Assembly: GCA_040771865.1 (NCBI GenBank)
Contig: JAXGZF010000003.1
Span: forward strand, 186,001 to 250,000
Length of the DNA: 64,000 bases
DNA from: Desulfobacterales bacterium
GTDB taxonomy: Bacteria; Desulfobacterota; Desulfobacteria; Desulfobacterales; UBA2245
Direction: 5' to 3'
Position numbers and translations under genes: made by a program. A model generated the notes under the pieces. That model made no database searches. It worked only from the letters and a program-made list of their open reading frames with translations, and was not told where the DNA came from. Shown piece after piece: positions 24,925 to 35,358 of this stretch. Position 1 is the stretch's first letter. Each line of letters starts with the position of its first letter.

Positions 24925-27402
24925 ATGAACATACCGAATCCCGAACTCCGGCTGGCCGAGGAATTTGTCCGGCACACCAACTGCAATATTTTTCTTACAG
25001 GCAAGGCAGGCACCGGCAAGACCACCTTTCTGCATGACATCCAAAAAAAGACCCGCAAGCGGATGGTGGTGACGGCCCCGACCGGCGTTGCCGCTATCAA
25101 TGCCGGCGGCGTCACCCTGCATTCCTTTTTTCAGCTGCCGTTCGGTCCATTTGTCCCCGGCGGCGAAGCATTCATCGGCCAGCACAGAATCCGGAGGGAG
25201 AAACAGAACATCATCCGGAGCCTTGATCTTTTGGTCATCGATGAAATCAGCATGGTCCGGGCCGACCTGCTCGATGGCGTGGACAGCGTCCTGCGGCGCT
25301 ACCGCCGCAACGAGCTGCCTTTCGGAGGGGTGCAACTGTTGATGATCGGCGACCTGCAGCAACTCTCACCGGTGGCCAAGCGCGATGAATGGCGGATCCT
25401 GCAAGAATATTACGATTCACCATATTTTTTCAGCAGCGCCGCGCTCGGCCGGACCGAGCTGATTCCCATAGAACTCAAGCACATCTACCGCCAGTCGGAC
25501 CGTCACTTCATCGAACTCCTTGGCTGCGTCCGTGACAACCGGCTCGATCCCCCCACCCTTGAAAAGCTGAATTCCCGCCATATCCCGGATTTTTCCCCGG
25601 GGGACGGGGATGGATACATTACCCTGTGCACCCACAACAGGGGCGCCGACACCATCAACGAAGCTAGGCTCAACGCTCTGCCTGGTAAAAGGCGCTGTTT
25701 TGATGCCGAACTGGGGGGTGATTTTCCGGAGCACGCCTATCCGACCGCCGGCGCCCTGGAAATCAAGATTGGAGCGCAGGTCATGTTCGTCCGCAATGAC
25801 ATGTCGGCCGAGAAACGCTACTTCAACGGCAAAATCGGCAAAATCACAGGGCTGTCGAGTGATGCCATCGAGGTGCGCTGCCCGGGGGATTCGGACAAGA
25901 TCACGGTGGAGAAAACCACCTGGGAAAATATCGAATACGCCGTCGATCCGAAAACCGCCGAGATTTCGCAAAAGGTCATTGGCACGTTCAGCCAATACCC
26001 CCTGAAACTGGCCTGGGCCATCACGATCCACAAGAGCCAGGGACTCACCTTCGACCGGGCGATCATCGACGCCCAGGCCGCCTTCGCCCACGGCCAGGTG
26101 TATGTGGCCCTGAGCCGCTGCCGGAGCTTCGAGGGAATGGTGCTCAGCTCGCCGCTGAGCGCACAGGCCGTGAAAACCGACCACACCGTTCAGAGATTCG
26201 TGAGGAACCTGGCCGGTCAGGCGCCGTCGCCGGAAAAAGTCACGGCCGAGAAAACCCGCTACCAGCGGCAGCTGATGCTGGCGTGTTTCAGTTTCGAGGG
26301 ACTGAATCGGTTGCTCGGCCGCCTGACGGGGCTTTTCTGCGGCAATTCCGGCGTGATTCATGTCTCGGGTGTGGGCGATATCATGGAGATGCAAAAACGG
26401 GCGGCGGCGGAGATCTGTGCCATCGGCGAAAAATTCAAGGCTCAGCTTCAGGGAATGTTCACCGATGACGCTCAAACAGCCGATGATCCTGTAATCCTGG
26501 AGAGGCTCGCCAAGGCATCCCGCTATTTTCAGGAAAAGTTCGATACGATCCTCTTGCCTTATCTTGAGAACATCGCGGTGGAGACGGACAACAAGGAAAT
26601 TCGAAAGAAAATCAACGATGCCCTCAAGCATCTGAGAGAGGAAACCGCGGTGAAGCTGACCGCGGTACGATCCTGCCAGGACGGATTTTCACCGGAAAAG
26701 TATCTCCGGTCGATTTCGGCCGCGGTTATGGACGTCGGGAAGGCGAAGCCGAAAACCCGAACCGGCATCTATTTCGAGGAGGACGTGGGCCACCCCGAAC
26801 TATTCGAAAGCCTGCGGAAATGGCGCAAACGGAAGGCTGCCGAGGAAGGAATCGCTCATTACCGGGTCCTGCACCAAAAAACGCTGGTGCAGATCGCGGT
26901 CCGCCTGCCCGATTCCATTTCCGCCCTGAAAAAAATCAAGGGCATCGGCAAGCGCCTGGCCGAGAGATACGGCGAAGAGCTTGTGAATATGGTGGCCGAC
27001 TATCTTCGGAAGCACGGGATTGAAGGAACGGCCCCGCCCGAACCGGCGACTATCGAGCCCCCGGAAGGGCCGAAAGCGCGGCCAACAGGGAGCCGGGACA
27101 CCAGGAAGCTCAGCCTTGAATTATTCGATCGGGGGCTTTCCATTCTCCAGATCGCCGCTGAGCGGAAACTGACAGCCTCCACAGTCGAGGGGCACCTGGC
27201 ATTTTTCGTTTCAAAAGGCGAACTTGAAATCGGCCGGGTGCTTCAGGATGAAAAGCGGCGGATCATAGAGCAAAAAATCTCAGAAATGCCGGGAACGCCA
27301 TTGAAGGAGCTGAAAACGGCCCTCGGAGATGCGTATTCCTACGGTGAAATCAAATTGGTCCTCGCCCACCTCGAACAACAACAAGGGGCGTTTGGGCATT
27401 GA
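24925..27402 (+). CDS. PIF1/RecD-like SF1B helicase with HRDC and C-terminal HTH domains
   Basis: TGKAGTGKTT, DEISMV, GDLQQL, LAWAITIHKSQG, YVALSR; HRDC LFESLRKWR..KIKGIGKR; HTH IAAERKLTASTVEGHL. Confidence 0.93.
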   Translation: MNIPNPELRLAEEFVRHTNCNIFLTGKAGTGKTTFLHDIQKKTRKRMVVTAPTGVAAINAGGVTLHSFFQLPFGPFVPGGEAFIGQHRIRREKQNIIRSLDLLVIDEISMVRADLLDGVDSVLRRYRRNELPFGGVQLLMIGDLQQLSPVAKRDEWRILQEYYDSPYFFSSAALGRTELIPIELKHIYRQSDRHFIELLGCVRDNRLDPPTLEKLNSRHIPDFSPGDGDGYITLCTHNRGADTINEARLNALPGKRRCFDAELGGDFPEHAYPTAGALEIKIGAQVMFVRNDMSAEKRYFNGKIGKITGLSSDAIEVRCPGDSDKITVEKTTWENIEYAVDPKTAEISQKVIGTFSQYPLKLAWAITIHKSQGLTFDRAIIDAQAAFAHGQVYVALSRCRSFEGMVLSSPLSAQAVKTDHTVQRFVRNLAGQAPSPEKVTAEKTRYQRQLMLACFSFEGLNRLLGRLTGLFCGNSGVIHVSGVGDIMEMQKRAAAEICAIGEKFKAQLQGMFTDDAQTADDPVILERLAKASRYFQEKFDTILLPYLENIAVETDNKEIRKKINDALKHLREETAVKLTAVRSCQDGFSPEKYLRSISAAVMDVGKAKPKTRTGIYFEEDVGHPELFESLRKWRKRKAAEEGIAHYRVLHQKTLVQIAVRLPDSISALKKIKGIGKRLAERYGEELVNMVADYLRKHGIEGTAPPEPATIEPPEGPKARPTGSRDTRKLSLELFDRGLSILQIAAERKLTASTVEGHLAFFVSKGELEIGRVLQDEKRRIIEQKISEMPGTPLKELKTALGDAYSYGEIKLVLAHLEQQQGAFGH

Positions 27403-27411
27403 TATATTGAT

Positions 27412-27526
27412 TGAAAGACAGGCGGTCTGGTTTTTCCCGACTGGTAATCGGAATTTGCAAAGGGGGAAACCGCAGCCCGTTCCAGCCATAGCGAAGCAAA
27501 AAAACTACAGCTTGGCCTTCCGGGTC
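27412..27526. repeat. Diverged ~115-bp direct repeat, copy 2
   Basis: Colinear with 20919-21032. Confidence 0.8.
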
Positions 27527-27764
27527 CGGAAAAACCATGCCGGCCAAACGCCTGCCCCTGTCCTGCCGCCGTTGAGCTTTGAAGCCATCGAAACAACCCG
27601 CTTTCATTTTATTGAAAAACAGTATATGGAAAAAAATTTAAAAGGCTTCAACAGGCTTGTCCGTCAGCCTTGAATTCAGGATCGTTTCCGTTATTCGGCT
27701 TGAAATCAGATGCGTCGTTCAAGGCCGGGCAACCGGACCGATTCATGGAAAGGAAAATATTGTG

Positions 27765-29882
27765 ATGACATATCAGGGCCGAATGAATTGCGGGGAACTG
27801 CAGATTTCCGATGCCGGGCGGGAGGTCCGTCTCGCAGGGTGGGTGGACGCCCTGCGGGATCACGGCGAGGTGCTGTTTATTCACCTGCGCGATCGAAGCG
27901 GAATCGTGCAGGTGGTGATCAGCCCGGAATTCGCTTCCCAGGAAGTCTGTCTGGCGGCCGCCGGGCTGAAAAACGAATACTGCATTTCCGTGCTCGGCCG
28001 CGTGGTCCGGCGCGAACCGGGAACCGAAAACCCGTATATTGAAACCGGCGGCATTGAGGTGATGGCCCTGGATCTGAACATACTGAGCTCTTCGGCCCCC
28101 CTGCCGTTTTCCATCACCGAAAAGGCCATGGTCGCCGGAGGCGGGGCGAGAGCCGCGGACCCGGTGGCGGAAGACATCCGGCTTCAGTACCGATACCTGG
28201 ATCTGCGGAGGCCGACCATGCAGAACCATCTGATCAAGCGCCACCGGATCAACAAGGCCATCCGGGACATGCTCGACGAACGCGGGTTCATTGAGATCGA
28301 AACCCCGATGCTCACTCGAAGCACGCCGGAAGGGGCCCGCGATTACCTGGTTCCCAGCCGGGTCCATCCCGGCGCTTTTTATGCGCTGCCGCAGTCTCCC
28401 CAGCTGTTCAAGCAGCTGCTCATGGTCAGCGGGTTCGAACGGTATTACCAGATTGTCCGGTGCTTCCGGGATGAGGACCTTCGGCCCAACCGCCAGCCCG
28501 AGTTCACCCAGCTCGACTTGGAAGCCTCCTTCATCGACGAGGAGTTCATCTATGAAATGATCGAGGAACTGGTGTCGCGGCTGTTTGCGATCGGCGGCAT
28601 CGAATTCGCCCGGCCTTTTCCGCGCATGACCTATCAGGAAGCCATGGACAGCACGGGTTCGGATCGTCCGGATCTGAGATTCGGAATGTTTTTCGTCGAT
28701 GCCACGGACATTTTTTCCGATACCGGCTACAGCATCTTCAGGCAGATTCTCCGCAGAGGGGGCGCCATTCGCGGCATCAACGTCAAGGGCCAGTCTGAAC
28801 AGCTGAGCAAAAACGTGCTTCAGAACGAATACGCCAAGGAAATCGTGCCCGGATTCGGCGCCAAGGGAATGACCTGGATGCGGGTGATCGACGGGGGCCT
28901 GGAGTCCAATATCGTTCAGTTTTTTTCCGAAAAAGAGCGGCAGGCGATTCTCAGCCGTTTTCAAGCCGAAAACGGCGACGTTATTCTGATGATCGCCGAT
29001 TCCTCCCGCGAGGTGGTCCTCTCGGCCCTGGGACAGCTGCGGCTTCATCTGGCTCACCGGCTCAACCTCATTCAGCCGGACCGGTTCTGCCCGTTGTGGG
29101 TTACGAATTTTCCGCTTTTCAAGGCCTCCGAAGAGGGAATCGTCTCCGAACATCACCCCATGACCGCTCCGGATCGTACGGACTTCGACCCCGCGAATAC
29201 CGAGCAGCTTCTCGGGCTGACGTCCAGGGCATATGACCTGGTGGTCAACGGCGAGGAGCTTGGCGGGGGCAGCATCCGCATTCATGAAAAGGAAACCCAG
29301 CACAAGATTTTCAAGGCCCTTGGGTTGTCCGAGGAGGAGATTCAGGAGAAGTTCGGCTTCTTTCTGGAGGCATTTGAATACGGTGCGCCGCCCCACGGCG
29401 GCCTGGCCCTGGGCATGGACCGGGTGGTCTCCATGATTCTGGGAACCGCTTCCATTCGTGAGGTCATTGCCTTTCCCAAGAACCGGAGCGCCTTTTGCCC
29501 CCTGACCAAGGCCCCGGCCGGCGTGGCCCGGGAGCAGCTGGCCGAACTGGGCCTGCTGGATTCGGGGGGTGAAAAACAGCTCCCTGGCCAGAGTGCGCAA
29601 TCGGACCGGATCGATTCCCTGTCCTGGGTTTCCCGAATCGGGGTTTCAGAAAAGGAGCGGCCGGTGATCACTGAGGCCGTTGACGCGGCCGTTCGCATGG
29701 CCGAAATCGTATCCGGGCGGGCCGGAGCGGAGCCGCCCATGTTTTCCCCCGGCGCCGGAACCGGCCGGAACCGGATTGATTCAAAGCCCGCGGTCAGTCC
29801 CTTTGCCTCCCGGGGCGAGGTGCTCAAAAATGCGCCGGCGGTCAAGAGCGATTTTTTCAAGGTCGCCAATATTCTGGAATGA
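27765..29882 (+). CDS. aspS: Aspartate--tRNA(Asp/Asn) ligase fused to a C-terminal GatC-like domain
   Basis: RDHG, RLQYRYLDLRR, STPEGARDY, LPQSPQLFKQ, FRDEDLR, GGGSIR, HGGLALGMDR, IAFPKN; then ~95 extra aa ending VLKNAPAVKSDFFKVANILE. Confidence 0.93.
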   Translation: MTYQGRMNCGELQISDAGREVRLAGWVDALRDHGEVLFIHLRDRSGIVQVVISPEFASQEVCLAAAGLKNEYCISVLGRVVRREPGTENPYIETGGIEVMALDLNILSSSAPLPFSITEKAMVAGGGARAADPVAEDIRLQYRYLDLRRPTMQNHLIKRHRINKAIRDMLDERGFIEIETPMLTRSTPEGARDYLVPSRVHPGAFYALPQSPQLFKQLLMVSGFERYYQIVRCFRDEDLRPNRQPEFTQLDLEASFIDEEFIYEMIEELVSRLFAIGGIEFARPFPRMTYQEAMDSTGSDRPDLRFGMFFVDATDIFSDTGYSIFRQILRRGGAIRGINVKGQSEQLSKNVLQNEYAKEIVPGFGAKGMTWMRVIDGGLESNIVQFFSEKERQAILSRFQAENGDVILMIADSSREVVLSALGQLRLHLAHRLNLIQPDRFCPLWVTNFPLFKASEEGIVSEHHPMTAPDRTDFDPANTEQLLGLTSRAYDLVVNGEELGGGSIRIHEKETQHKIFKALGLSEEEIQEKFGFFLEAFEYGAPPHGGLALGMDRVVSMILGTASIREVIAFPKNRSAFCPLTKAPAGVAREQLAELGLLDSGGEKQLPGQSAQSDRIDSLSWVSRIGVSEKERPVITEAVDAAVRMAEIVSGRAGAEPPMFSPGAGTGRNRIDSKPAVSPFASRGEVLKNAPAVKSDFFKVANILE

Positions 29883-29970
29883 CGGGTGCAAACCGCTCGT
29901 CATTTTTTGCGGATTTTTGACAAATCAATTTCAAAAAATTGAATTCAAAAGGATTTTGAAAGGCCTATAT

Positions 29971-31164
29971 ATGGATGCCGAACTCTTTGCCCATCTGAAT
30001 CCATCGGCCGAGGCGGCCTCGGACGGGCCGCTTGCGGGAAAAACCCTGGTCGTCTGGCCCAGCATATCCGTCCGGGGATGGCCGGCCGAGGCGGGTTCGA
30101 CCGCGTTGAAAGGCTTTGCGGCCCTTGAGGACGCCACGATGGTCGAGCGCCTGAAAAAGGCCGGCGCCGTTCTGGCCGGAAGTTCGCGAATGAGCGAACT
30201 GGGTTTCGGCCTGGCCGGGGATACGGCGGCTTTGATTCTGGATCAGGGAGGCGCCGATGCGGCCCTGGTGGTGGACGCCATGGGCGAGGCGCGCGCGGCC
30301 GCGGCCCGTGTCCGCCGGTTCGGATTCAAGCCCACCCACGGAATGATTTCCAGATGCGGCCTCATCGGTCTGATCCCCTCCATGGAAAGCGCCGGAATTC
30401 TGGCGGACTCGCCGGCGGACATCTCTCGAATCCTGGCTTGCATGGCCGGGCTCGACGAACGCGATCCTTCCATGCTGGAACGGCCGGCGCCCGATTTTCC
30501 CCGGACATCGGAAGCGCGCGGAGTGGTCGGCGTGATTCAGGAAAGCGAAGAAAAGCTCTCCCCTGAGGCATCGGCCGGATTTCAACAGGCCCTTTCAAAG
30601 CTGGAAAGCCGCGGATTTCGAATCGTCCGGACCGGACTGGCCGATTTCGAACTGTTTTCGACCGTTCACAATGTCGTCGGGTCGGTCGAGGCCTCTTCGA
30701 GCTGCGGAAAATACGACGGGGTCCGTTACGGTTACCGGGCGGCCGGCGCCAAAAACTGGAATGAGATGTACATTCGAACCCGGGCTGAATCCTTCGGCCT
30801 TCTAGTAAAATCCTATCTTTTTCAGGGCGCCTACTTCCAGTTTGAAAACTACGGCGCCTTTGAGAACGCCTGCCGGATTCGCCGCCGTCTGGTCGAGGGG
30901 ATCGAGGGAATTTTCAAAACCGTGGACATGCTCGCCTTTCCGGCTCTGAACCGCGAATGCAGGGCGGATGAGGCCCGAAGCATCGAATCGGTTTACGATG
31001 CGTTTGCGCTGACCCTTCCGGCCAACGTGACCGGGCATCCGGCGCTTCAGGTTCCGGGTCTGGCCGTGGATTCAAAGCAGGATTTCGGGCTTCAACTGGT
31101 CGGACCCTACGGCTCGGATGCCGGGCTTCTCAACCTGGCTGACCGGATGCTTGCCGATCGCTGA
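29971..31164 (+). CDS. gatA: GatA-like amidase-signature protein lacking catalytic residues
   Basis: GPLAG, DATMVERL, GFKPTHG.ISR.GL, KYDGVRYGYR, TLPANVTGHPAL, GLQLVG retained; Lys/cis-Ser/Ser triad absent. Confidence 0.85.
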   Translation: MDAELFAHLNPSAEAASDGPLAGKTLVVWPSISVRGWPAEAGSTALKGFAALEDATMVERLKKAGAVLAGSSRMSELGFGLAGDTAALILDQGGADAALVVDAMGEARAAAARVRRFGFKPTHGMISRCGLIGLIPSMESAGILADSPADISRILACMAGLDERDPSMLERPAPDFPRTSEARGVVGVIQESEEKLSPEASAGFQQALSKLESRGFRIVRTGLADFELFSTVHNVVGSVEASSSCGKYDGVRYGYRAAGAKNWNEMYIRTRAESFGLLVKSYLFQGAYFQFENYGAFENACRIRRRLVEGIEGIFKTVDMLAFPALNRECRADEARSIESVYDAFALTLPANVTGHPALQVPGLAVDSKQDFGLQLVGPYGSDAGLLNLADRMLADR

Positions 31165-31226
31165 GAAGGGCATGCAACCTGGAATGAAAATGCCCGGGGT
31201 CGCTTTCATATAAAGGAATAACGGTT

Positions 31227-32660
31227 ATGAATTTTGAAGCGGTTATCGGTCTGGAGATACACGTTCAGCTGTCCTGCGCCACCAAGCTGTTCTGCGACTG
31301 CCCCAACAGTCCGGGCGACGCTCCCAACATAAACACCTGCCCCATCTGCCTGTGGCTCCCCGGCGCGATCCCCCGGCTGAGCGAAGAGGCCGTGGAAAAA
31401 GCGGCCATGGTCTGCCTGGCGCTGAACTGCCGAATTCAGAATGAAAGCGCATTTGACCAGAAGGTCTATTATTACCCGGACCTGCCCAAGGGATACCAGC
31501 TTTCCCAGCATCACAGGCCTCTGGGGAAAAACGGATGGCTGGAGGTGGCCGGAGCGGACGGAAATTCCAGGCGGCTGCGGATTCATCACATTCACATGGA
31601 AGAAGACGTGGCCAAGCTGGTGCATGAGATCGAGGGCCGAACGCCGATCAGCCTGGTGGATTTCAACCGGGCCGGAACCCCGCTGGTGGAAATCGTGACC
31701 GAGCCCGACATGCGAAGCTCCCAGGATGCGATGGGCTTTCTGCGGGCCCTGCGCGCGCAGATACGCTACACCGGCAGTGCGGAATGCAGCATGGAACAGG
31801 GCTCCATGCGGGTGGACGCCAACATATCGATCCGTGAAAAGGGAAGCGATCAGTTGAACACCAAGGTGGAGGTCAAGAACATGAACTCCATTCGAAACGT
31901 CTGCGATGCCATTGACTATGAAATCCACCGTCAGATCGCCTGCGTCCAGTCGGGGGAGCCGATCGTTCTGCATACGCGGCTCTGGGACCCGGACAAACAT
32001 GTCACCACGGCCATGCGCGGCAAGTTCGCGGGCCCCTGCATTCCGGACCCGTCGGTTCCGCACATCCTCATTACCGAAACCCGGCTTCAGCAGTTAAAGG
32101 AGAAACTTCCGGAGATGCCGGATCAGAAAGCCCGCCGTTTTGTTCAGGACTACGCCCTTCCTCAGGAAACCGCCGCCCTGATGAGCGCGGAAAGAGATCT
32201 TTCGGAGTATTTCGAGGCGGTGGTCAGGCTGGGGCCGTCTTCAAAGACAGCGGCCTACTGGATTTCCGCCCACCTGTTGCCCGCCATGAAGGACCATGGA
32301 CAGAATCCGGCCGACGCCCGGGTGACTCCCGAACGCCTGGCCGGGCTTCTCGTCATGCTTGAAAAAGACGAGATCAATGCCGGTTCGGCCAAAAGCGTTC
32401 TTTCGCAGATGTTTGAAAACGATCAGGCCCCTGAACGGATCGTCGAGCAATCCGGTTTCCGTCAGGTTTCCGATGCGGATGAACTTCAGGACATCGTTCT
32501 CTCGGTTATCGAGAAGAATCCTTCGGCCGTCGAAAACTATCGAAACGGAAAAACCCAGGCCGTGGGTTTCCTGATGGGACAGGTCATGCGGGCCACTCAG
32601 GGCAAGGCTAATCCCAAAAGGGTTCAGGAGATTCTTCAGAAAGCGCTGGCGGCCTTGTAG
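31227..32660 (+). CDS. gatB: Asp-tRNA(Asn)/Glu-tRNA(Gln) amidotransferase subunit B (divergent)
   Basis: VIGLEIHVQL, YYPDLPKGYQ, HMEED, DFNRAGTPLVEIVTEPD, KVEVKNMNS, YqeY tail GFLMGQVMRATQGKANP. Confidence 0.93.
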   Translation: MNFEAVIGLEIHVQLSCATKLFCDCPNSPGDAPNINTCPICLWLPGAIPRLSEEAVEKAAMVCLALNCRIQNESAFDQKVYYYPDLPKGYQLSQHHRPLGKNGWLEVAGADGNSRRLRIHHIHMEEDVAKLVHEIEGRTPISLVDFNRAGTPLVEIVTEPDMRSSQDAMGFLRALRAQIRYTGSAECSMEQGSMRVDANISIREKGSDQLNTKVEVKNMNSIRNVCDAIDYEIHRQIACVQSGEPIVLHTRLWDPDKHVTTAMRGKFAGPCIPDPSVPHILITETRLQQLKEKLPEMPDQKARRFVQDYALPQETAALMSAERDLSEYFEAVVRLGPSSKTAAYWISAHLLPAMKDHGQNPADARVTPERLAGLLVMLEKDEINAGSAKSVLSQMFENDQAPERIVEQSGFRQVSDADELQDIVLSVIEKNPSAVENYRNGKTQAVGFLMGQVMRATQGKANPKRVQEILQKALAAL

Positions 32661-32687
32661 CGGTTTGGATCATTTCGCCGTTCAAAG

Positions 32688-32730
32688 GAATCCCCCTGCC
32701 AAAACGAGACAGGGGGGATTCTGCGTTTTT
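32688..32730. terminator. Hairpin terminator between convergent gatB and nspC
   Basis: GAATCCCCCTG...CAGGGGGGATTC followed by T-rich tail. Confidence 0.7.
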
Positions 32731-32736
32731 CAGAAT

Positions 32737-33897
32737 TCAGGAAAGCCGGTTCCGGTAATCTTCGTATCCGAAGGTTCGAATGATCCGGACCTTCCCGGTC
32801 CGCGAGTTGAACACGCCGATCGAGGGCAGGCGAATGCCGTTGAAGGTATTGTTTTTCACCATGGTGTAGTGGGCCATGTCCAGAAAGATCAGTTTGTTTC
32901 CTGCCTCAAGCGGCCGGTCAAAGGAATAGTCCCCGATCACGTCTCCGGCCAGGCAGCTCGGTCCGGCCAGTCGGAAGGTGTGGGCCCGTTTTTGCGGCTC
33001 GCCGCCGCCGATGATTTCCGGACGGTAGGGCATTTCCAGAACATCGGGCATGTGGGTGGCTGCCGAGGCGTCCAGAATGGCGATCCGCATCCGGTTTTCC
33101 ACGACATCCAGAACCGAGGACACGAGAATTCCGGTGTTCAGGGCGACGGCCTCGCCGGGTTCCAGATAGACGTCCACGCCGTAGCGGGCCTTGAAATTCA
33201 CAATCATTCGGCAGAGCGCCTCGACGTCGTATCCGGGTTTGGTGATGTGATGGCCGCCTCCGAAATTCACCCATTTCAGGCCCTTGAAGAATCCGCCGAA
33301 TTTCTTTTCCACCGCGCCAAGCACCCGTTCCAGGACCCCGGCATCCTGTTCGCACAGGCAGTGAAAGTGCAGGCCGCAGATGCCCTCCAGGGCGTCCGGT
33401 TCAAAGTGGTCCAGCGTGACGCCGAGCCGCGAACACGGGTAGCACGGGTCGTAGATGGGTGTTGCGACCTCGGAGTATTCCGGGTTGATGCGGATGCCGC
33501 ATTCGATCGGGCGGGGGGCATTTTTCAGAAACGCCCGAAGCCTTCGGTACTGGGAAAAGGAGTTGAACACGATGTGATCGGCGTATTGAATGATTTCCTG
33601 AAAATGGGCATCGCTGTATCCGGGCGCGCAGACATGCACCTCTTTGCCGAACTCCTCAAAGGCCAGGCGGGCCTCGTCGAGCGAACTGGCGCTGGCCCCG
33701 GCCAGATACCGGCGGATCAGGGGGGCGAAGTGCCACATGGCAAAGCCCTTGAGGGCCAGAAGAATCCTGCATTCGGCGGTTTTCTGAACCGAATCTAGAA
33801 TTTTCAGATTGTCTTCCAGGGCGACCTCGTCCACCAGATAACAGGGGGTCGGCACGTCCTCGAGACGGATGTTGAAATGCGTCCGGGTCATCGTCAT
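32737..33897 (-). CDS. nspC: Carboxy(nor)spermidine decarboxylase
   Basis: LALKGF (PLP Lys), YDPC..SRLG, NFGGGHHIT, EPGEA, HMPDVLEMPY, CLAGD, HYTMVKNNTFNG. Confidence 0.95.
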   Translation of the reverse strand: MTMTRTHFNIRLEDVPTPCYLVDEVALEDNLKILDSVQKTAECRILLALKGFAMWHFAPLIRRYLAGASASSLDEARLAFEEFGKEVHVCAPGYSDAHFQEIIQYADHIVFNSFSQYRRLRAFLKNAPRPIECGIRINPEYSEVATPIYDPCYPCSRLGVTLDHFEPDALEGICGLHFHCLCEQDAGVLERVLGAVEKKFGGFFKGLKWVNFGGGHHITKPGYDVEALCRMIVNFKARYGVDVYLEPGEAVALNTGILVSSVLDVVENRMRIAILDASAATHMPDVLEMPYRPEIIGGGEPQKRAHTFRLAGPSCLAGDVIGDYSFDRPLEAGNKLIFLDMAHYTMVKNNTFNGIRLPSIGVFNSRTGKVRIIRTFGYEDYRNRLS

Positions 33898-33901
33898 TCC
33901 G

Positions 33902-35131
33902 CTAATTCAGGGGATTAAAGGCGTCTGCGATTCCGGCGAAATAGTCCTTTTCAGGATCCAGATCCTGTTCGTGCCAGGGCAGGCCGTGCTGGTTGAGCTT
34001 TTCCATGAAGGGATCCGGATCGAACTCCTCCACGTTGAAAACCCCGGTTCCGCGCCAGACGCCGGTGGCCGCCATCATGGCGCCGATCATGGCCGGAACG
34101 CCGGTGGTGTAGGAAATCGCCTGGGCGCCGATCTCCCGAAAGCACTCGGCGTGATCGCAGACGTTGTACACATAGTACTGCCGCTTTTTTCCGTCCCGAA
34201 TCCCGTTGATCAGGCATCCGATATTGGTCTTTCCGCTGTAAGTGACGCCCAGGGAACCGGGATCGGGCAGAACCGCCTTGAGAAACTTCAGCGGAACGAT
34301 CTCACGCCCCTCGTAGAGCACCGGATCGATCCGGGTCATACCCACGTTTTCGAGGACCCTCAGATGGGTCAGATATTCCTGGCCGAAGGTCATCCAGAAC
34401 CGGATGCGCCGGACGCCCCTGATGTTTTTGGACAGGGATTCGAGCTCCTCATGGTACAGAAGATAGCTTTCCCTGGGTCCGATCCGGGGGTAGTCAAAGG
34501 GCAGATGAACGGACATGGGGTCGATTTCGATCCATTTTCCGTTTTCAAAGTACTTGCCGCGCTGGGTGATTTCCCGAATATTGATTTCCGGATTGAAGTT
34601 GGTGGCAAAGGGATGCCCGTGGCTGCCGGCGTTGCAGTCCAGAATGTCGATGGTATGGATGGTGTCGAACTTGTGCTTCTGGGCGTGGGCGCAGAACACG
34701 TTGGTCACGCCGGGGTCGAAACCGCAGCCCAGAAGCGCCATGATGCCCTTTGCCCGGAACCGGTCCTGATAGTCCCACTGCCACTTGTAGCAGAACCGGG
34801 CCTCGTCGGGCGGTTCATAGTTGGCCGTATCCAGATAGTTGACCTTCGTTTCCAGACAGGCGTCCATGATGGCCAGATCCTGGTAGGGCAGGGCGACATT
34901 GATCACGATGTCCGGCCGGACGCTTCGAATCAGCTCGGCTGTCTGCCGGGGGTCATCCGCATCCACCTGGGCGATCTCGATGGGCCGGGAAATGCTTTTT
35001 TGAATTTTCTCGCATTTTTCCAGAGTCCGGCTGGCCAGACAGATTCGAGTGAAAACCTCTTTTGCCTGAGCGCATTTATGAGCCACCACGTTTCCGACGC
35101 CGCCGGCGCCGATGATCAAAACCGTGCTCAT
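33902..35131 (-). CDS. Carboxy(nor)spermidine dehydrogenase (saccharopine dehydrogenase family)
   Basis: IIGAGGVG, NVALPYQDL, YLDTANYEP, GFDPG, FATNFNPEINIRE, AISYTTGVPA; adjacent to nspC. Confidence 0.93.
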   Translation of the reverse strand: MSTVLIIGAGGVGNVVAHKCAQAKEVFTRICLASRTLEKCEKIQKSISRPIEIAQVDADDPRQTAELIRSVRPDIVINVALPYQDLAIMDACLETKVNYLDTANYEPPDEARFCYKWQWDYQDRFRAKGIMALLGCGFDPGVTNVFCAHAQKHKFDTIHTIDILDCNAGSHGHPFATNFNPEINIREITQRGKYFENGKWIEIDPMSVHLPFDYPRIGPRESYLLYHEELESLSKNIRGVRRIRFWMTFGQEYLTHLRVLENVGMTRIDPVLYEGREIVPLKFLKAVLPDPGSLGVTYSGKTNIGCLINGIRDGKKRQYYVYNVCDHAECFREIGAQAISYTTGVPAMIGAMMAATGVWRGTGVFNVEEFDPDPFMEKLNQHGLPWHEQDLDPEKDYFAGIADAFNPLN

Positions 35132-35358
35132 GTTTCCCTCCCGCACTGATGCCTAATCGGTTGTTTCAAAAAGATTTTATGATTTTTATTTTTCACAGGC
35201 GGCCGGATTTTGCAACGAAAACGTTTACTGATTCAAGACTGCTTTGCGAAGATTTAAAAATGGCGGCAGCTCTGATAAACCCGTTGACGAAGTGCTTTGA
35301 GCTGATTTAATGTGGAAAGTCAGTAATTTGATGCGTACAGGAGGGCGCTGCTGAATTC

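Follow-up and report, generated by a model that had tools for sequence, protein, structure and literature searches.

An AspRS-GatC Fusion Gene in a Conserved Second gatCAB-Like Operon Whose GatA Paralogue Lacks the Catalytic Triad

Introduction

Why should a bacterium with a complete set of canonical genes for aspartyl-tRNA synthetase (AspRS) and the amidotransferase GatCAB keep a second AspRS with GatC fused to its C-terminus, next to a GatA paralogue without catalytic residues? This question is raised by a 64,000-nucleotide (nt) stretch of a Desulfobacterales genome (assembly GCA_040771865.1, contig JAXGZF010000003.1, positions 186,001 to 250,000), called the window below. All coordinates without a contig prefix are positions in this window on its forward strand. 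The locus is a three-gene operon, aspS'::gatC'-gatA'-gatB', in which the primes set the products apart from their canonical counterparts. A first-pass annotation had claimed that a GatC-like domain is fused in frame to AspRS and occupies the gatC slot of a gatCAB operon. Our analysis makes it very likely that the architecture is what it seems, that is, a real fusion with GatC homology, a dead GatA' and a conserved second set. The main features are as follows.

27762..29555, + strand: AspRS' part of the fused gene; bacterial type, with an oligonucleotide-binding (OB) anticodon-binding domain, a class II core and a GAD insertion
29556..29606, + strand: linker of about 17 residues (LDSGGEKQLPGQSAQSD) from the AspRS C-terminus to GatC'; low column conservation among the 21 aligned tails
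29607..29882, + strand: GatC' domain, a full-length GatC homologue, with the stop codon; delimited by PF02686, the tail profile and the predicted interface
29971..31164, + strand: gatA', 397 amino acids (aa), a GatA paralogue without the amidase-signature triad (pseudo-glutaminase scaffold); from TIGR00132, alignments and an AlphaFold2 model
31227..32660, + strand: gatB', an intact GatB paralogue with cradle/kinase domain and YqeY-like tail; from TIGR00133, Pfam and motifs

Results and Discussion

The Fused Gene

A single open frame on the + strand runs from 27657 to a TGA at 29880-29882. We took the ATG at 27762 as the likely start, because the NCBIfam model NF009460 aligns from residue 2 and the relatives are 703-706 aa long; the fused gene is then 27762-29882 (+), with a product of 706 aa. 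The AspRS end (..IAFPKN..QLAELGL) has its final residue at nt 29555, and 108 further codons follow in the same frame. AspRS' passed the bacterial AspRS model TIGR00459 (700.9 bits, cut-off 373.85) and contained all three Pfam domains (tRNA-synt_2, 401.5 bits; GAD, 67.7 bits; tRNA_anti-codon, 49.5 bits). Its catalytic motifs are retained, and 172 alignment columns are conserved and identical between it and canonical AspRS.

GatC' is the C-terminal 91 residues of the 706-aa synthetase. We searched the last 115 residues (the tail) with the Pfam GatC model PF02686, a check that the first-pass annotation had named, and obtained 24.8 bits (E = 2.6e-5, cut-off 23) for tail residues 38-110 on profile positions 2-66 of 66. 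When the whole protein was scanned, the same model matched residues 629-701 with 20.7 bits, under the cut-off of 23, and the GatC model TIGR00135 gave GatC' 19.6 bits, under its cut-off of 47.1. A profile made from the alignment of 21 orthologous tails matched the solved GatC chains 2df4_C, 3al0_C, 3h0l_C and 4wj3_C, the best being 2df4_C of S. aureus (E = 4.8e-5, residues 5-95 of 100). As the PF02686 and 2df4_C ranges show, the homology extends over the full length of GatC, beyond any single motif. The three motifs that had been recognised as GatC-like paired in this profile alignment with the proposed counterparts in solved GatC: LSWVSRIG with IANLARLQ, EEPxFSV with EPTYHV, and NAPAVKGxYFKVAxIL with NAKETEDGQFKVPTIM. 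The domain had been placed at 29601-29882, which agrees with the range covered by TIGR00135 (29604-29879) and with the predicted interface described below, which starts at 29607. PF02686, NF009460 and the tail profile therefore bear out a GatC-like domain in frame at the AspRS C-terminus.

GatC' is far diverged from the GatC of the same genome. The two were 21% identical in a pairwise MAFFT alignment, which is poor, so that we prefer the hidden Markov model (HMM) alignments; the Pfam GatC score was 25 bits for GatC' vs 84 bits for the canonical protein.

The fusion could have been an artefact in which a missed stop or a frameshift near 29570-29600 joins two separate genes. We surveyed one genome per species (185,579 species) by a pattern and a tblastn scan with the GatA' alignment, which gave 292 relatives among 333 pattern matches; the best 80 of these 292 are the related loci used here. 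A fused frame of about 705 aa was present in 78 of the 80, from independent assemblies. For 77 loci the sequence extends into aspS, and in 74 of them, all but L048, L089 and L094, the AspRS and tail matches are read in the same frame. A search with the tail matched 108 protein clusters, nearly all of 703-706 aa.

Contigs from public sequencing runs were compared with 28800-30600, and no insertion or deletion was listed in four runs. Run X1, possibly the source sample itself, has a contig that is free of differences and gaps over 29478-30071 and so crosses the region in which a missed stop had been suspected. Run X3, from a second study, covers 29422-29569 and 29743-29897; the interval 29570-29742 is a gap in its cover and not a finding, and the same holds for the end of the RNA-library contigs at 29569. 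Nothing that we found supports an artefact, and we regard this explanation as practically out of the question. The AspRS::GatC fusion is genuine and not an assembly slip.

The architecture is not new, because NF009460 (PRK12820) already names it as a 'bifunctional aspartyl-tRNA synthetase/aspartyl/glutamyl-tRNA amidotransferase subunit C'. It was the best-scoring family for the fused protein (1216.2 bits, residues 2-706 on profile positions 18-723 of 723) and corresponds to it in architecture from end to end. The window protein stayed below the curated equivalog cut-off of 1379 bits, and so did its orthologues from two cultured strains, Syntrophorhabdus aromaticivorans UI (1250 bits) and Desulforhabdus sp. 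TSK (1298 bits). Public records for proteins that match the tail are mostly titled plain 'aspartate--tRNA ligase'. The papers listed in a search for PRK12820, NF009460 and the family name held no mention of them, and no paper on a natural AspRS-GatC fusion or on an inactive GatA was found in the literature searched. Thus, the AspRS-GatC architecture is known to databases and uncharacterised as far as our literature search reached. The family name is silent on an inactive GatA' partner and on a co-existing canonical set. The new part is a conserved second transamidosome-like operon whose GatA lost its catalytic triad, of which we found no description in the literature searched.

A GatA Paralogue without the Triad

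The gene downstream of the fusion had been read as gatA. Its product is indeed GatA-like, but it has lost the catalytic Lys, the nucleophile Ser and, with the GGSSGGS block, the cis-Ser. GatA' scored 225 bits with TIGR00132, below the cut-off of 481.1, vs 646.9 bits for the canonical GatA of the genome. An alignment with this 492-aa protein showed 29% identity, and GatA' is without about the first 41 residues of canonical GatA. The catalytic Lys is replaced by Trp (LVVWPSI vs LAVKDLI in canonical GatA), the GGSSGGS block is deleted, and the nucleophile Ser, which is Ser178 in S. aureus GatA according to the available text of PMC2330236, has given way to Glu (GEAR vs GGSIR). No residue of the Ser-cisSer-Lys triad is left.

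We aligned 13 GatA' sequences, that of the window and 12 further ones, of which 11 have 391-412 aa and one has 449 aa. The triad loss and the shared deletions were found in all 13, including the 449-aa member, and a 22-residue deletion removes GGSSGGS in each. The Lys position varies among W, Q, E and P. The nucleophile position is Glu in 12 of the 13 and Gln in the 449-aa member. GatA' also has conserved motifs of its own (NWNEMY, LFQGAYFQF and GExR). An exhaustive profile-free search returned a GatA' group of about 25 representatives (E = 1e-122 to 1e-44, the full-length ones 391-412 aa), and after a clear step in score came ordinary GatA proteins of 460-495 aa with 30-35% identity. GatA' is a conserved family and not a one-off wreck.

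GatA' is predicted to keep the GatA fold. Its AlphaFold2 model had a mean predicted local distance difference test (pLDDT) of 87.3 and a predicted template modelling score (pTM) of 0.89, and the best Foldseek matches were the GatA chains 3kfu_E, 3h0l_A, 4wj3_A and 2df4_A (template modelling score, TM, 0.90-0.93).

GatB' appears in order throughout. It passed TIGR00133 (520.5 bits, cut-off 314.8) and contained the Pfam domains GatB_N (339.7 bits) and GatB_Yqey (159.5 bits). It matched A. aeolicus GatB (3h0l_B) with E = 4.7e-128, and the motifs GLEIHVQ, EED and EIVTEPD are identical in the two and invariant in 16 GatB' orthologues.

Two other short GatA-like proteins, P0161 (396 aa) and P0191 (405 aa), fall outside the GatA' group. 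The N-terminal helices are missing from both, and neither has the catalytic Lys or the GGSSGGS block. Glutaminase activity may have been lost more than once among the relatives of GatA.

Conservation, Selection and Distribution of the Operon

The arrangement is the same in every related locus. In all 80, the GatC' tail lies directly upstream of gatA', gatB' lies directly downstream, and the gatA' frame is open; clustering of the open reading frames (ORFs) in the flanks of the 80 loci revealed no fourth conserved gene. The identities to the window given below are over the 79 loci other than the closest, and the ratios of nonsynonymous to synonymous substitution rates (dN/dS) are from a single pair, the window against its nearest relative L032.

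AspRS': identity 68-84% for the best segment and 68-77% for matches over most of the core; dN/dS 0.089
GatC' tail: identity 40-58%; dN/dS 0.35
GatA': identity 47-58%; dN/dS 0.25
GatB': identity 60-75% for the best segment and 60-68% for full-length matches; dN/dS 0.11
Canonical AspRS: dN/dS 0.075

All three operon genes are under purifying selection. These data bear on the explanation that the operon is a decaying duplicate, redundant and on its way to loss, with gatA' as a pseudogene-like remnant. It could be argued that GatA' has lost its catalytic residues and part of its N-terminus, that the dN/dS values of gatA' (0.25) and of the tail (0.35) are higher than those of the neighbouring genes, and that the operon is patchy in the phylum, as shown below. 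However, all dN/dS values are well below 1, the frame is open in 80 of 80 loci, and 12 of 13 GatA' proteins from several orders share the same deletions and a length of 391-412 aa, while the 449-aa thirteenth shares the deletions. In addition, the predicted fold of GatA' is confident, and AspRS' and GatB' are highly conserved. Decay is therefore close to refuted, and we give it very little credence.

By record title, the carriers were mostly Syntrophales, Syntrophobacteraceae, Syntrophorhabdus, Desulfobacterales and metagenome-assembled genomes (MAGs) of unclassified 'Deltaproteobacteria', with a few MAGs under other labels. We also searched 201 genomes drawn evenly from the phylum with a GatA' profile (E <= 1e-70) and found the operon in two, including the window's own; of five genomes of the same order, none carried it. 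The distribution within the phylum is patchy. The cultured carrier Desulforhabdus sp. TSK appears to belong to this phylum as well.

Between the window and L032, synonymous divergence was 0.14-0.19 for the operon genes and 0.39 for canonical aspS (L008 vs L114). The lower value in the operon could be caused either by recent transfer or recombination between the two lineages or by codons that are more constrained. Syntrophorhabdus aromaticivorans UI has two copies of the operon, L071 and L089, on two scaffolds. In L089, located at the end of its scaffold, AspRS and the tail match in different frames, and this copy may be frameshifted or broken.

The Canonical Set in the Same Genome

The window's genome is 98.3% complete. 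The first-pass annotation had stated that no separate gatC precedes gatA. This is correct at the locus, but elsewhere in the genome a canonical gatC (84.2 Pfam bits) lies next to a canonical gatA (646.9 bits) at C4:269464-271146, and a canonical gatB (599.4 bits) at C6:310742-312163. The locus is therefore a second, paralogous set. In the same way, the fusion does fill a gatC slot ahead of a gatA-like gene and gatB, but the operon in question is this second set. The genome also encodes canonical AspRS (802.2 bits), AsnRS (600.7 bits) and GlnRS (780.5 bits).

No AsnB over the cut-off (best 81.3 bits vs 267.1) and no AsnA were found in this genome. Given that no asparagine synthetase reached its cut-off, the genome would need tRNA-dependent Asn synthesis. 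It contains one tRNA(Asn), with U1-A72, and one tRNA(Asp), with G1-C72 and a longer D-loop. In the accessible part of PMC2330236, U1-A72 is the pair recognised by bacterial GatB, and the tRNAs of this genome fit that rule. The sole tRNA-Asn(GTT) gene (C4:192120-192195) has the orientation of canonical aspS (C4:192254-194008) and follows it downstream after about 60 nt, which hints that canonical AspRS and tRNA(Asn) are expressed together.

We examined 20 other carriers, selected among the 80 loci so that contigs were long and labels diverse. Canonical GatA over the cut-off was present in 19 of the 20, both canonical and fused AspRS in 19, GlnRS in 19, AsnRS in 8 and an AsnB-family gene over the cut-off in 14. 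Misses are weak evidence, because most of these carriers are MAGs of unknown completeness.

Type-I Operons and the AspRS Tree

Two genomes of the same phylum, G107 and G260, carry another kind of fusion operon, which we call type I; the operon class of the window is type II. In these loci (L029 = G107:C3:101000-109500 and L031 = G260:C31:19500-28500), an AspRS::GatC fusion with a GatC of 86-88 Pfam bits is followed by gatA and then gatB. The type-I GatA has its full length of 479-481 aa and retains GGSSGGS/GSDTGGSIR intact. It is the sole GatA of either genome, beside a separate canonical AspRS. Type-I operons appear to be the only amidotransferase of G107 and G260. In type-II fusions the GatC domain reaches only about 25 bits with Pfam GatC, which makes this model unfit for a census of them; these two genomes with a Pfam-detected fusion are therefore no estimate of prevalence.

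A third candidate, G170:C1:373573-373788, was rejected as a type-I fusion: a canonical GatC lies there in a 743-aa frame, but the AspRS is on another contig. The G170 genome is G+C-rich, and the length of an open frame alone can mislead.

We built a quick maximum-likelihood tree (LG+G4) of 42 AspRS sequences, comprising 20 canonical enzymes, 20 type-II fused cores and 2 type-I enzymes, with G170 and 60 other loci left out. Branch support was by the Shimodaira-Hasegawa-like approximate likelihood ratio test (SH-aLRT) only, and the tree is unrooted and was drawn with midpoint placement. All fused AspRS grouped together against all canonical ones (SH-aLRT 100, branch length 0.56), and type II formed one group (support 99) adjoining type I. 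Groupings within type II largely mirror those of the canonical enzymes of the same genomes. For the same 20 genomes, mean pairwise identity was 0.73 for AspRS' vs 0.57 for housekeeping AspRS.

Fused and canonical AspRS differ at 23 columns that are fixed differently. The class-specific changes include AD -> PN in the motif-2 loop (242-243), an insertion in the hinge (123-126) and an insertion in the GAD domain (353-355), and all three are common to type I. No sequence signature of a non-discriminating AspRS was found in the available parts of the literature searched, and the motif-2 loop change and the two insertions would be the only leads on whether AspRS' charges tRNA(Asn).

Taken with the tree, we infer that a dedicated second AspRS was fused to GatC once among the sampled fusions and that the glutaminase was lost later, in lineages with a separate gatCAB. 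This order of events is tentative, because the tree is unrooted.

The Predicted Complex

We predicted the complex of GatA' and GatB' residues 1-300 with the 115-residue tail as the scored partner, in three runs. The tail scored 0.93 against GatA'-GatB', and the best control scored 0.45; the mark used is reached by 116 of 157 solved complexes and by 2 of 215 mismatched pairs. Contacts agreed by at least 84% among the three runs, and the pLDDT of the partner was at least 76. In the models, tail residues 25-115 touch GatA' and GatB', and residues 1-24 (the AspRS end and the linker) lie outside the interface. GatC' is thus predicted to wrap the interface of GatA' and GatB'. Because GatCAB structures have already been solved, the score should be read as likeness to the GatC belt and not as binding.

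Two GatA'-specific motifs, at 259-269 and 280-289, fall within the interface predicted for GatC', which would fit if GatC' and GatA' formed a pair of their own that does not mix with the canonical one. This observation bears on a further explanation, subunit mixing, by which GatC' and GatB' would use the canonical active GatA, glutamine would stay the donor, and GatA' would be an inactive alternative that switches off or tunes the tethered complex. Such mixing is conceivable, since canonical GatA was present in 19 of the 20 carriers and since the type-I fusion of G107 and G260 works with an intact GatA that is the only one in the genome. On the other hand, gatA' shares the operon with the fusion in all 80 loci, its family motifs lie in the predicted interface, and the divergence of GatC' from the genome's own GatC (21% identity, 25 vs 84 Pfam bits) is large. 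We consider mixing quite improbable.

Proposed Mechanism

The model that we propose is a second, tethered Asn-transamidosome-like complex that is independent of glutamine and works beside canonical AspRS and GatCAB. The GatC' belt would tie AspRS' to the GatA'-GatB' heterodimer. AspRS' would load Asp on tRNA(Asn), the bearer of U1-A72, and the tethered GatB' would phosphorylate the bound Asp and then amidate it with no release. Because GatA' is unable to hydrolyse glutamine, the amide nitrogen would be free ammonia or ammonium, which may enter through the gutted GatA' pocket. In the available text of PMC4027206, 20 mM NH4Cl supports transamidation when the glutaminase is bypassed. Canonical GatCAB depends on glutamine; the complex could be a counterpart that does without it, in a relation like that of AsnA to AsnB. 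The apparent need of this genome for tRNA-dependent Asn synthesis counts in favour. The whole model, with the ammonia step included, is put forward tentatively, as possible but short of probable.

Several points weigh against it. The full canonical route is present (AspRS, GatCAB, AsnRS and GlnRS), and a second route to Asn-tRNA is therefore not obviously needed. With carriers in 2 of 201 genomes of the phylum and in none of 5 of the same order, the operon must be dispensable for most relatives. Among the 20 carriers there is no simple pattern of the operon replacing a missing enzyme. The identity of the amide donor, the choice of tRNA by AspRS' and the formation of the complex are all inferred, and the complex score may come from the memory that the prediction model has of solved GatCAB. 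Metatranscriptome contigs from two libraries cover parts of aspS' and gatA', which is evidence of presence only and no proof of transcription. Finally, the conserved Glu at the nucleophile Ser position and the GatA'-specific motifs also fit a new ligand or new chemistry.

This last point leads to the explanation that no Asn-tRNA is made at all. The Asp on the tRNA would be activated by GatB', and the product would differ because the remodelled GatA' pocket binds some other nucleophile or ligand; or Asp-tRNA would be used in a non-translational or regulatory way. The pocket region has lost the triad, yet it keeps conserved residues of its own (GExR, NWNEMY and LFQGAYFQF), and the operon stands beside canonical GatA and canonical AspRS in 19 of the 20 carriers each. 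AspRS' is more conserved than housekeeping AspRS (0.73 vs 0.57), and a GatA/GatC module with a new job has a precedent in 6c6g/6c62, which were among the fold matches, as far as the available description of these entries goes. However, no extra conserved gene in the 80 loci would supply or use another substrate, GatB' retains the canonical motifs and the tRNA-binding tail, and the GatC' interface explains part of the GatA'-specific conservation. New chemistry in this broad sense is unlikely. The narrower claim that the pocket with its conserved Glu delivers a moiety other than glutamine-derived ammonia, to yield a derivative of aspartate on the tRNA, or else a signal or a regulatory effect, is to be doubted a little more.

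Spacers and Neighbouring Genes

Between the fused gene and gatA' lies one further feature.

29883..29970, + strand: spacer of 88 nt, AT-rich; from reading of the sequence

A similar spacer is found in L032, and it is far shorter in most other related loci. A scan of 27300-32900 gave no promoter-like site and no intergenic site that resembles a terminator, and no Rfam family matched in 27300-30050.

The upstream neighbour (24925-27402, +) encodes an 825-aa PIF1-like helicase with HRDC and HTH_40 domains, which is not conserved beside the operon in other loci. Downstream, two convergent genes occupy 32737-35146 (-). One encodes a 386-aa decarboxylase dependent on pyridoxal 5'-phosphate (PLP), with an Orn_DAP_Arg_deC C-terminal domain, and the other a 414-aa protein of the saccharopine-dehydrogenase family. 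We take this pair to resemble the carboxynorspermidine pathway for polyamines.

Comparison with Known Systems

The operon has the same four protein modules as the bacterial Asn transamidosome, which consists of a non-discriminating AspRS (ND-AspRS), GatCAB and tRNA(Asn) and has been solved for T. thermophilus (3KFU) and P. aeruginosa (4WJ3). The GatA' model superposes on the GatA chains of both (TM 0.90-0.93), and the GatC' profile matches 4wj3_C. In those complexes, however, the synthetase is non-covalent and GatA is an active glutaminase, whereas in the window the synthetase is fused to GatC and GatA is without the triad.

Type-I operons share the arrangement, with fused AspRS-GatC, gatA and gatB as in the window, and have AspRS parts that group with ours (SH-aLRT 100). 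They differ in a GatC of 86-88 Pfam bits and in a GatA that is intact, full length and the only one of the genome. A covalent bond between a synthetase and GatC is also known from 3AL0, the glutamine transamidosome of T. maritima, with an engineered GatC-linker-GluRS; its GatC chain 3al0_C matched the tail profile with E = 1.4e-3. As far as the available description of 3AL0 goes, that fusion is man-made, has GatC before the synthetase and contains GluRS and not AspRS.

Several AspRS genes and two gatCAB sets in one genome have been reported for Clostridium acetobutylicum, with two gatCAB and three aspS in Table S2 of PMC4206432, where the discussion ties the extra copies to a physiological switch. 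In this respect it is like the window, but the available parts of the paper report no fusion and no inactive GatA. In the same table, part of a survey of Asn pathways from 2014, the genomes with two AspRS include none named Desulfo- or Syntroph-.

Conclusions

In the usual description, transamidosomes assemble transiently or only with tRNA and keep mischarged Asp-tRNA(Asn) off the ribosome. Here, the tether was made covalent by evolution, and in the type-II subfamily the glutaminase was discarded and its shell kept. For annotation, this means that GatA' genes should not be named active GatA and that the operon should not enter 'gatCAB' counts without comment. The question of function is directly testable, because cultured carriers exist (Desulforhabdus sp. 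TSK and Syntrophorhabdus aromaticivorans UI) and only three genes have to be cloned.

Many carriers are, by their record titles, syntrophs and sulfate reducers from digesters and sediments, and such organisms live near the energetic limit. If free ammonia does serve for amidation, the operon would let them make Asn-tRNA(Asn) without glutamine and so spare the ATP of glutamine synthesis. If the complex does something else, for instance if it makes an Asp derivative or a signal, it would represent a new tRNA-dependent pathway, and one under stronger constraint than the housekeeping AspRS.

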